A stretch of 64,000 nucleotides of DNA from a virus, in the IMG/VR virus record IMGVR_UViG_3300036851_000272, positions 4,422 through 68,421 of that record; one strand, written 5' to 3'. Position 1 is the first letter of the stretch; every line of letters begins with the position of its first letter. The notes under the pieces are model-generated. The model saw only the letters and a program-made list of their open reading frames with translations. It was not told where the DNA came from and did no database searches. Position numbers and translations under genes: made by a program. Shown one piece after another: positions 55,188-57,000 of the stretch.

Positions 55188-55231
55188 ATCTTACGCTATT
55201 TGGGTCTAAGTAGTCAAGTAGAATCAGACAC
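55188..55231 (-). promoter_or_regulatory. Early lytic promoter with upstream operator
   Basis: Minus strand GTGTCTGATTCTAC-TTGACT-N18-TAAGAT. Confidence 0.7.
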
Positions 55232-55252
55232 CCGAAAGGAAATATTTTTGCG

Positions 55253-55546
55253 ATGGTCAAGTCGGCCGAACCAAAACCCGAGCCACGGTCCATAAAGCTT
55301 CACCCCGCCACGCTCAGGGCAATGCAGCACGAGTGTGCGGACACAGGCCTCACTTTAATGGCCTTGATCGATCAGATGTGGGAAGCATACAGGCGACTTC
55401 CGGCGCGGGAAAAAGGAAGTGCGATTCCAGCCAATGCAGACATGCCCCCAAACCTGGGAGCGGTACTCTTAGAAATAGCTATAAATCCACGGGCCGGTGA
55501 AGAGATTCTTGCTGAGATGATGATCAAACATGCGAAAAGGCGTTGA
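55253..55546 (+). CDS. Repressor-position RHH-like regulator
   Basis: RSIKLHPATLRAMQHECADTGLTLMALIDQMWEAY; AAAGGA RBS; divergent from 54980 gene; no S24 peptidase domain. Confidence 0.55.
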   Translation: MVKSAEPKPEPRSIKLHPATLRAMQHECADTGLTLMALIDQMWEAYRRLPAREKGSAIPANADMPPNLGAVLLEIAINPRAGEEILAEMMIKHAKRR

Positions 55547-55577
55547 CATTTTGGGACGCCGGGCGCATCATGCCTGC

Positions 55578-56003
55578 ATGCTCCCCGGCCCCGAGGTTTT
55601 TATCACGGTCGAAGAACTTGCTCTGACCGCAGATTACGTCGCAGCCGCAGATAAAGCCGTGGAGCTCGTCTGGGCCAAAATGCTGGTCGGAGCGAAGCCG
55701 CCAAGTGGCAACCTGACCGAGAAGCAACTGCGCATCATATTAAGGCACGCACAGAGGCTCTTCCGGGAAAACCCGGCCAAATTCAACCTGCCGTGGGAGC
55801 TGATTAAATGGCTCTGGTGGCATGTCGGGGAGATCGCACAGGAGAAACTCGACGCCCTGGACTCAGAGGGCCGCTGGGACTGCTACTGGAGGGTAAAGTG
55901 GAGTAATGTGGCTCTGCGTATACACCTTGTCTGGGTCGCGGCCACATGGCCGCGCCACGCTCCCGAGATTTCCTCTATCTATTCCCGCCTGCCCCCAGAA
56001 TGA
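55578..56003 (+). CDS. Trp-rich hypothetical protein coupled to 7-TM gene
   Basis: TTGACA(55543)-N17-CATCAT then ATG 6 nt later (leaderless?); alternative ATG at 55530; ATGA overlap downstream. Confidence 0.6.
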   Translation: MLPGPEVFITVEELALTADYVAAADKAVELVWAKMLVGAKPPSGNLTEKQLRIILRHAQRLFRENPAKFNLPWELIKWLWWHVGEIAQEKLDALDSEGRWDCYWRVKWSNVALRIHLVWVAATWPRHAPEISSIYSRLPPE

Positions 56004-56716
56004 AGTACACGATTTGGACGCTAATGTACGTCGGACTGTTCGCCAGACTCCTGGCCTTCGGTTGTATGTGGCGTCGCGAATTGCTCGCAAAGTACATTTT
56101 CCTGACGCTGTTTCTCGTGCTCGGCAGCGTTCGCACTGGCGTGCTGTTGTACTTGCGCCACACCGATCAGCGAGCCTACGCGGCATTCCACTCCGCCAGC
56201 GCGGACGCCATGTTCCTGGTGCACCTGGGACTCGTACTGGAGGCTCTCGTAATGCTTGCCAGGCACCACCCGAACTCCGCGGTGTTCGCGGCCGGCGGGT
56301 ACGCGTTCCTCGGTATCATGTCGGCAGCGCTGGCGAGCCTCACAGCGAACCTCGGCGCATCAGGCACCGCCGACGTGCGGGTGAGTCTCGCGATCCGCAT
56401 ATATGCCGTGGCGTTTTTGATCTGTCTCGGCTGTACGCTCCTGTTTCTTCGCCAGTTCAAGCGGATCAAAATACGGGCGAACGTTCGGACGCACTGCTAC
56501 ATCCTCTACGCGATGTTCGTTCTGGTGGCGGCCGGTAGTGGTCTCGTCGCCTCCAAGAGCAGCCTGACGATTACTGGGATAGGTATGATCCTTCTGGTGT
56601 GTGCCGATATTGTGACGGGCTCCGCATGGGCTTACTGGATGCGGCCGAAGGGGGAGGAGTTGATCCAACCCCCTCCGTTACGCCGCACGCTTAATGAGAT
56701 CGAAGGCCGCGCCTAG
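56000..56716 (+). CDS. 7-TM integral membrane protein, putative peptide receptor
   Basis: 238 aa from MKYTIWTL; seven hydrophobic segments, short loops, short polar C-tail; receptor role is inference. Confidence 0.75.
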   Translation: MKYTIWTLMYVGLFARLLAFGCMWRRELLAKYIFLTLFLVLGSVRTGVLLYLRHTDQRAYAAFHSASADAMFLVHLGLVLEALVMLARHHPNSAVFAAGGYAFLGIMSAALASLTANLGASGTADVRVSLAIRIYAVAFLICLGCTLLFLRQFKRIKIRANVRTHCYILYAMFVLVAAGSGLVASKSSLTITGIGMILLVCADIVTGSAWAYWMRPKGEELIQPPPLRRTLNEIEGRA

Positions 56717-56886
56717 CGGACGCTGGGAGGTCCACCGCCGCCCTGGCCTGGAGGCAGGTCCGGATCGCAGAACGGCGGTGCGCAGGGTGGATCTTCAAAG
56801 AAGAGCGTACCGATGTAGTTCGATTGTTTCGCGGTCAACGCGAGAGCGCTGAGCGTCAGTAATCCAGCAAGTATAAGTCTTTTCAT
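56713..56886 (-). CDS. Secreted Pro/Cys-rich pre-peptide (57 aa)
   Basis: Not in track; MKRLILAGLLTLSALALTA-KQSNYIGTLFFEDPPCAPPFCDPDLPPGQGGGGPPSVR; AAAGG RBS; stop overlaps 7-TM stop in CTAG. Confidence 0.8.
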   Translation of the reverse strand: MKRLILAGLLTLSALALTAKQSNYIGTLFFEDPPCAPPFCDPDLPPGQGGGGPPSVR

Positions 56887-56949
56887 TTGGTTAGCCTTTC
56901 AGGTTATTTGGGCCGATGCCCATTGGTTGACTGTACCAGCTTTTATTTC

Positions 56950-57000
56950 GTGTCTGAGTGTCTGTTTCTACTTGACTGCTGGAGAGATTAGGCGTAAGAT
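56950..57000 (+). promoter_or_regulatory. Second copy of the early promoter/operator
   Basis: GTGTCTGA-GTGTCTGTTTCTAC-TTGACT-N17-TAAGAT; 21/23 identical to the minus strand of 55209-55231. Confidence 0.75.

Follow-up and report, generated by a model that had tools for sequence, protein, structure and literature searches.

The twin sites and the cassette between them

The locus described here lies in a window of 64,000 nucleotides (nt), bases 4422-68421 of the 68,421-bp IMG/VR record IMGVR_UViG_3300036851_000272, which represents an uncultured soil phage; all coordinates given below are those of the window. Between positions 55188 and 57000 the window carries two near-identical promoter-like sites, P_left and P_right, which face outward from a small central cassette of open reading frames (ORFs). 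P_left (55188..55231, minus strand) is formed by the block GTGTCTGATTCTAC with a -35 hexamer TTGACT (55217-55212), followed by an 18-nt unconserved spacer and then by GCG and the -10 hexamer TAAGAT (55193-55188), with a transcription start expected at about 55181. P_right (56950..57000, plus strand) is formed by an additional unit, GTGTCTGA (56950-56957), standing in tandem with the block GTGTCTGTTTCTAC. Its -35 hexamer TTGACT (56972-56977) is followed by a 17-nt spacer and by GCG and the -10 hexamer TAAGAT (56995-57000), and transcription would be expected to start at about 57007.

The reverse complement of 55188-55231 reads GTGTCTGATTCTACTTGACTACT, then TAGACCCAAATA, then GCGTAAGAT, and the plus strand of 56958-57000 reads GTGTCTGTTTCTACTTGACTGCT, then GGAGAGATTAG, then GCGTAAGAT. 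Direct reading of the sequence agrees with the letters and positions that the first-pass annotation had reported for 55231-55188 (minus strand) and 56958-57000 (plus strand). The 21/23 identity and the two common hexamers that it had described were recovered in the sequence, in the repeat listing and in a promoter scan, and the extra GTGTCTGA was found where it had been placed. Each copy was also found, as proposed, back-to-back with an inward ORF, the left block lying 21 nt from the ATG at 55253 and the right block 71 nt from the ATG at 56886.

The cassette opens with the gene of a 97-amino-acid (aa) ORFan protein (55253..55546, plus strand), the first of our candidate regulators. It is followed on the same strand by a 157-aa ORFan (55530..56003; the public gene call is a 141-aa form starting at 55578) and by a 238-aa ORFan membrane protein with 7 predicted transmembrane segments (56000..56716). 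The first two genes overlap by 17 nt, and the stop of the second shares an ATGA with the start of the third. This tightly packed set diverges from the gene of a 64-aa protein (54980..55174, minus strand), from which it is separated by 78 nt. At the other end, a convergent 57-aa ORF (56713..56886, minus strand) has a stop codon overlapping that of the 238-aa gene. It combines an N-terminal signal-peptide-like segment with a Pro/Gly-rich tail containing two Cys, and among the six frames it narrowly has the best codon score (-0.037 vs -0.064); it is probably a real gene.

Chance tests and modular conservation

Both sites scored 9/12 in the promoter scan (TTGACT-18-TAAGAT, minus strand, 55217-55188; TTGACT-17-TAAGAT, plus strand, 56972-57000), so that reading them as outward-facing sigma-70-type promoters is supported at the sequence level. 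Promoter-likeness alone was not significant, because 4 promoter-like sites were present between 52 and 60 kb and shuffled sequences had a mean of 3.7.

The twin-site feature itself is real and statistically secure, and is not due to chance. In the repeat listing it appears as an inverted pair of 23-nt arms, which are 91% complementary and separated by 1726 nt. A degenerate form of the 23-mer, tolerating at most 3 mismatches, had 2 matches in the window as in the 68,421-bp genome, a number reached in 0 of 100 shuffles. We also made an unbiased count of pairs at least 21/23 identical within 3 kb: the window contained a single inverted pair of this kind, the twin sites, and none was present in 29 first-order Markov simulations. 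Finally, the pattern TTGAC[AT]-N16-18-TAnnnT had only 3 matches in the 68.4-kb genome, all of them intergenic and facing genes, and two of these are P_left and P_right.

The conservation between the two copies is distributed in modules. Identity was 21/23 in the block (about -49 to -27) and 9/9 in GCG and the -10 hexamer. It dropped to 3/11 in the spacer, and to 9/40 and 6/40 in the upstream and downstream flanks, which are at the random level. The difference between the blocks (30/32) and the spacer (3/11) is significant (Fisher p = 4e-5), and the spacers differ in length (18 and 17 nt). A recent duplication would decay evenly. For this reason, and because of the unequal spacers, selection acting on separate sites accounts for the pattern more readily than a recent duplication does.

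Inverted repeats bracketing ORFans could alternatively delimit a 1.7-kb cassette that is mobile, as a moron-type insertion, or invertible, as an inverton on which one of the phage recombinases acts, with no regulatory function. Such an origin would suit the somewhat higher third-position G+C of the cassette ORFans (0.76 in the 238-aa gene) and the two tyrosine recombinases encoded by the genome. However, no direct repeats flank the cassette and no recombinase gene adjoins it, and an inversion would leave both outward promoters as they are. The GCGTAAGAT motif, which lies outside the repeats at a matching distance on both sides, is likewise unexplained by recombination ends. In the only public run that contains the region, a soil metagenome that is probably its source, it lies on a single contig at depth 22 with zero variants or alternative joints, an absence of little weight, since rare variants are lost in contigs. 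Taken with the evidence on both sides, an origin as a mobile cassette seems to us scarcely credible.

A putative shared operator, its candidate binders and known switches

Directly upstream of the -35 hexamer, from about -49 to -36, both copies share 14 conserved nt, GTGTCTGWTTCTAC, of about 43% G+C. The known UP element is an A/T-rich upstream promoter element, and GTGTCTGWTTCTAC was not read as one because it is not A/T-rich. A/T-rich tracts are found further upstream in both copies, where they are not aligned with each other. The position just upstream of -35 is a common binding place of regulators that touch or block the polymerase.

In the reading that we favour, and which we would put at an even chance of being right, the twin sites are early promoters co-regulated via a shared operator, in a geometry like that of lambda PL and PR. 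Host RNA polymerase with a sigma-70-type factor would fire both promoters outward from the central cassette. P_left would transcribe the genes of the 64-aa DNA-binding-like protein, a T5orf172 protein, DUF2303, RecT, a nuclease and a recombinase, while transcription from P_right would cover a non-coding stretch of about 400 nt and might reach a methyltransferase gene by read-through. GTGTCTGWTTCTAC would be the shared operator, and one small phage protein, binding both copies, would switch the two outward promoters together, the direction of regulation being taken as repression. The candidates for this binder are the 97-aa product, in a CI-like position, and the 64-aa product, in a Cro-like position. 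The second, tandem GTGTCTGA at P_right would provide a second binding unit and with it a different affinity at that site; tandem units of 7-8 bp are typical of ribbon-helix-helix (RHH) operators, for example those of MetJ and omega. Promoter activity, protein binding, the identity of the binder and repression are thus what we infer, starting from the observed sequences, their uniqueness, their modular conservation and the gene layout.

On weak evidence, and with moderate confidence, we call the 97-aa and 64-aa proteins RHH-like, not members of the family. By eye, both follow the strand-helix-loop-helix pattern of RHH proteins. In the ESM Atlas, the 64-aa protein reached scores of 0.94-0.95 with 161-178 shared features, its neighbours being YlcI/YnfO, HicB, RHH_3, RHH_1 and NikA-like clusters, and the 97-aa protein scored 0.92 against a cluster in which RHH_1 makes up 66%. 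The top three hits of the two proteins together had 153-178 shared features and scores of 0.92-0.95. Among the structures listed for the 97-aa protein, those of CopG, ParG, TacA and NikA-like proteins had TM-scores of 0.42-0.55. Its single-sequence AlphaFold2 (AF2) model (mean pLDDT 59.5) consists of a coil followed by helices at residues 18-31 and 35-48. In a wide fold search, its residues 9-52 gave trimmed alignments spanning entire RHH domains (PutA52, Z 3.2; VapB12, Z 3.2; StnY, Z 3.4). A Foldseek search of this model against the PDB returned nothing at E <= 0.001.

Several observations weigh against a shared operator bound by one of these proteins. The Z values of the fold search lie within noise, and for the 64-aa protein AF2 gave a helical hairpin lacking any strand. 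With thresholds relaxed to E = 10 or 1, the Pfam, NCBIfam and PHROG models still gave no match to either protein, and neither matched a PDB sequence. The sigma-70 consensus is an assumption about the host. The heptamer GTGTCTG shows no enrichment (7.6 copies would be expected in the window and 7 are present, 3 of them in the twin sites), and no LexA-type box or palindrome common to both block copies was apparent by eye. GCGTAAG[AC]T occurs also at 57444 and 30094, both intergenic, so that conservation on the -10 side may reflect a preference of the polymerase rather than an operator. Searches of IMG/VR, of metagenome contigs and of genome contigs gave no related phage DNA in which the block could be compared. 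Lastly, at 32.85 kb the phage has another divergent promoter region, accompanied by an RHH-like gene of its own and by a recombinase operon. It could be the real lysogeny switch in place of the twin sites, or both regions may contribute.

Some of these points would suit an explanation that dispenses with any regulator, in which P_left and P_right are similar, strong, unregulated early promoters and the shared block reflects a preference of the polymerase or its alpha subunit, or short-patch copying from one promoter to the other. No activator would be needed, because the -35 is near consensus (5/6) and the spacing optimal. The recurrence of GCGTAAG[AC]T at two further intergenic sites, the lack of any DNA-binding domain detected in the neighbouring proteins by hidden Markov models (HMMs) and the absence of clear symmetry in the block are also in its favour. 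Against it, the 14 conserved nt are not A/T-rich and the A/T tracts further out are unaligned, the block is confined to these two among the promoter-like sites of the genome, and the extra tandem GTGTCTGA at one copy resembles operator multiplicity. We consider unregulated promoters an unlikely explanation, if one to be taken seriously.

A further arrangement, compatible with a shared operator, is that each copy is a compact bidirectional core, with the outward -35 opposite the -10 and start of an inward promoter. The inward -10 would be TAGAAT (55219-55224, plus strand) for the 97-aa gene and TAGAAA (56970-56965, minus strand) for the 57-aa ORF, and the polymerase could not sit on both promoters of a pair at once. 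A promoter for the 97-aa gene is needed in or near the 78-nt intergenic region, where TAGAAT is the best -10-like hexamer; it would give a leader of about 22 nt with AAAGGA. P_left and this inward promoter would overlap, because their starts are about 50 bp apart. GAAAGG precedes both inward ORFs. Overlapping divergent promoters under a single RHH protein are known from P22, where Arc represses two such promoters (PMC2724298). Yet neither inward site passes the promoter scan, and an acceptable -35 is absent 16-18 nt upstream, a position that corresponds to the unconserved spacer. Moreover, one of the two block mismatches turns the right hexamer into TAGAAA, which lacks the conserved final T, the most conserved position of a -10. 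A bidirectional core appears improbable on this evidence.

An extended version of the same layout would make the copies two-way switch units, bound by an ORFan RHH protein and forming a peptide-linked lysis-lysogeny circuit without homology to arbitrium. The outward -35 would overlap the inward -10 and start. A single protein, perhaps with looping of the intervening 1.75 kb, would shut both early promoters and set the level of its own operon and of a secreted 37-residue Pro/Cys-rich peptide. We regard so elaborate a circuit as very improbable.

To return to the shared operator that we favour, its layout can be compared with known switches. In the lambda immunity region, PL/OL and PR/OR flank rexB-rexA-cI. 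Like lambda, the present phage has two outward, putatively early promoters about 2 kb apart with a common operator-like sequence, a candidate regulator gene between them that would be co-transcribed with accessory genes, including that of a membrane protein, and a small divergent gene in the Cro position adjoining the candidate regulator gene. Two outward sigma-70-type promoters bracketing 55253-56886 were found at the sequence level, as in the lambda arrangement. Unlike lambda, it has no cI-type helix-turn-helix (HTH) or S24 peptidase protein detectable with Pfam or NCBIfam at E up to 10 or 1. Where lambda has three 17-bp pseudo-palindromic operators per side, there is here one asymmetric 23-nt block, with an additional 8-nt unit on the right, and in place of an N-like gene the right transcript would comprise non-coding sequence and the methyltransferase gene. 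The lambda PL/PR analogy drawn in the first-pass annotation is a fair one for the geometry, given the outward promoter-like sites, the shared block, the compact cassette and the recombinases of the phage; the common regulator, and its control of the peptide gene, are predictions. Co-regulation of the lambda kind is a reasonable, unproven reading of these sequences.

In P22 immI, the RHH repressors Arc and Mnt act at the divergent, overlapping promoters Pant and Pmnt. Repression of two such promoters by Arc (PMC2724298) is a precedent for the reading that we favour. The left end of the cassette resembles this system in its two small divergent RHH-like genes, which lie so close together that their promoters would overlap. 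It differs in that the RHH assignment is here a lead only, and in that a T5orf172/MUG113 gene, not an antirepressor gene, follows the first early gene. P22 immI, for its part, has no second distant promoter/operator copy.

The first-pass annotation had described the central genes as a repressor-receptor-peptide cassette, a label for which we found no support. Arbitrium is the aimR-aimP-aimX system of Bacillus phages. In an arbitrium-like module the 57-aa ORF would be a secreted signal, sensed by the 157-aa protein or by the protein with 7 transmembrane segments, and the operator would link the promoters to it. The resemblance lies in a short ORF with a signal-peptide-like N-terminus adjoining P_right near a putative switch, in a membrane protein within the same cassette, and in the non-coding transcript predicted beyond P_right, which is loosely reminiscent of aimX. 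Against this, searches of Pfam, NCBIfam, PHROGs and PADLOC matched none of the cassette proteins to an AimR-like, tetratricopeptide repeat (TPR) or TPR/HTH receptor. The 97-, 157- and 238-aa proteins had no match in these collections at permissive thresholds and, among 5.8 billion clusters, were related only to themselves. The 157-aa "receptor" is, besides, less than half the length of AimR-type receptors. The 57-aa ORF had no family match except a signal-peptide-only NCBIfam row at E = 0.027, and no relatives in IMG/VR, the only place searched for it, so that no co-conservation of peptide and receptor can be seen. Its coding signal is marginal, as the codon scores given above indicate, and it is convergent with the genes of the cassette, not downstream of a receptor gene and co-directional with it as a pro-peptide gene would be; gene order and orientation differ from arbitrium, and no homology was found. 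The arbitrium-like receptor-peptide label is unsupported by these comparisons, and we hold a module of that kind to be highly implausible.

The locus is a known kind of phage regulatory layout, built here from ORFan proteins. If the block is an operator, it would define a minimal regulatory region made from proteins without known relatives, extend the design of two outward promoters under one regulator to a very distant soil phage lineage, and represent a new DNA-recognition specificity for small RHH-like regulators. The design principle itself is textbook and the general interest modest; the main use of the twin sites would be as a probe pair for the two small proteins.

The phage, its relatives and the flanking features

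The 68,421-bp record ends in direct terminal repeats of 127 bp, and its completeness is estimated at 100%. The phage encodes an SU10-type major capsid protein, RecT, a DUF2800/PD-(D/E)XK nuclease and DUF2303, as well as two tyrosine recombinases of the Phage_integrase family (35640-36536, plus strand; 45522-46655, minus strand). Among 50,697 deposited phages, 24 records matched its capsid protein, with identities of no more than 33.5%; by this measure the phage is a very isolated lineage. It is probably temperate, and its two tyrosine recombinases, together with an Xis-like HTH ORF (30134-30427, minus strand), lead us to expect a lysogeny switch somewhere in it. No integrated copy of the phage was found in genome contigs when the 64-aa protein aligned with its relative P0003 was used as the query, and no attachment site was identified. 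No tRNA or transfer-messenger RNA was found, and no RNA sequencing run is listed as containing the region.

The isolation of the lineage extends to the locus. The 64-aa protein had 2 matches among 1.84 billion representatives: P0003, a real relative encoded on contigs of at most 2,466 bp, and a repeat protein (E = 7.8e-4), which we rejected as not being a real relative. With the alignment of the 64-aa protein and P0003, 0 relatives were recovered in metagenome contigs and 0 in genome contigs. In IMG/VR, no relative was found for any of the 97-aa, 145-aa, 272-aa (DUF2303) and 57-aa proteins or for P0003, and blastn of 54300-58300 against the 50,697 phage records gave no match. A match of residues 32-85 of the 157-aa protein to a tape-measure protein in IMG/VR (44% identity) was judged spurious. 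The 26 IMG/VR loci containing TCTGNTTCTACTTGACT were discarded as chance hits because none has the fuller motif or GCGTAAGAT. The single metagenome match to GTGTCTGNTTCTACTTGACT, which lies inside an apparent coding sequence and has no -10 motif, was also rejected.

Within the cassette, an internal promoter-like site (TTGACA-17-CATCAT, 10/12; 55543..55571, plus strand) is embedded in the terminal part of the 97-aa gene. Only 6 nt separate the end of its -10 from the ATG at 55578, so that an mRNA started here for the 141-aa form could be leaderless, matching the public gene call. In PADLOC, the cassette and neighbour proteins had sub-threshold rows alone, apart from a methyltransferase-domain match of the methyltransferase.

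Downstream of P_right, a stretch of about 400 nt (57007..57405, plus strand) contains no convincing ORF. Its folding is somewhat better than that of shuffled sequences (z = -2.6; 3 of 100 shuffles as good), and it ends in a terminator-like hairpin at about 57346-57397 with a 12-bp stem followed by TTTCGCTTTTT (z = -4.3; 0 of 200 shuffles). Rfam gave no match over the window at gathering thresholds, and a single chance-level internal ribosome entry site row (E = 0.82) over 54900-57600. A blast of 56880-57470 against the phage's own genome revealed no second copy of the non-coding region. Promoter pieces recur inside this stretch, TGACTGCTGGA at 57131 and TTACTACTTGA at 57361. Beyond it, a weak promoter-like site (TTGCAA-17-TAAGCT; 57424..57452, plus strand), which has GGCGTAAG in common with P_right, precedes the gene of a class I S-adenosylmethionine-dependent methyltransferase (Methyltransf_11/25; 57470..58201, plus strand) with a strong Shine-Dalgarno sequence, GGAGGA. 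The spacer of this site is filled by a perfect 12-bp palindrome, CCCAATATTGGG (57433-57444), which looks like an operator of a different dimeric regulator. A terminator-like hairpin (58205..58226, minus strand) at the end of a convergent leftward unit abuts the end of the methyltransferase gene. A fourth GCGTAAGCT is found at 30094-30102, in a gap of 582 nt that separates the structural operon from the Xis-like HTH ORF. TGCAA stands before it, as it does at the promoter-like site of the methyltransferase gene, at a different distance.

The second divergent region, at 32.85 kb, comprises on the minus strand a 61-aa RHH-like ORF (32653-32838), followed by a 104-aa T5orf172-like ORF (32342-32656), a paralogue of the 145-aa T5orf172 protein encoded next to P_left, with which it shares 30% identity (E = 6e-8). 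Its back-to-back promoter-like sites are TTGCGC-18-TAAAAT (minus strand, 32876-32847), whose -10 ends 8 nt before the ATG so that the mRNA may be leaderless, and TTGACA-16-TATGCT (plus strand, 32885-32912), which heads a rightward operon ending in a 298-aa recombinase gene. An element of about 30 nt, CCCCGAATCGAAGGGGACTGATCGATAGAAAGGA, is present in three copies (33241-33285, 34114-34157 and 34462-34505), directly before the start codons of three consecutive plus-strand genes. It includes a Shine-Dalgarno sequence and could form a small hairpin, and may be a common translational or processing signal.

P_left reads as the head of a long leftward early operon. The first gene, that of the 64-aa protein, would encode 61 aa if the ATG at 55165 were used; its sole relative, P0003 (61 aa, 59% identity), aligns from this second ATG. 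The first ATG lies 13 nt after the -10 and the second 22 nt after it, and neither is preceded by a Shine-Dalgarno sequence, which, loosely defined, is present at 17 of 27 confident phage genes. The second gene (54546..54983, minus strand) encodes the 145-aa protein with a T5orf172/MUG113 domain, and the operon continues leftward with DUF2303 (272 aa), RecT, the DUF2800 nuclease and a tyrosine recombinase. The earlier description of this unit as a "lytic operon" was loose, the genes being recombination genes and a tyrosine recombinase gene, not lysis or structural genes. Further along the early region, near-identical stretches of about 33-58 nt occur at 42147-42290 and 43129-43270, some 980-990 nt apart in neighbouring minus-strand genes, which suggests that these genes are tandem paralogues.

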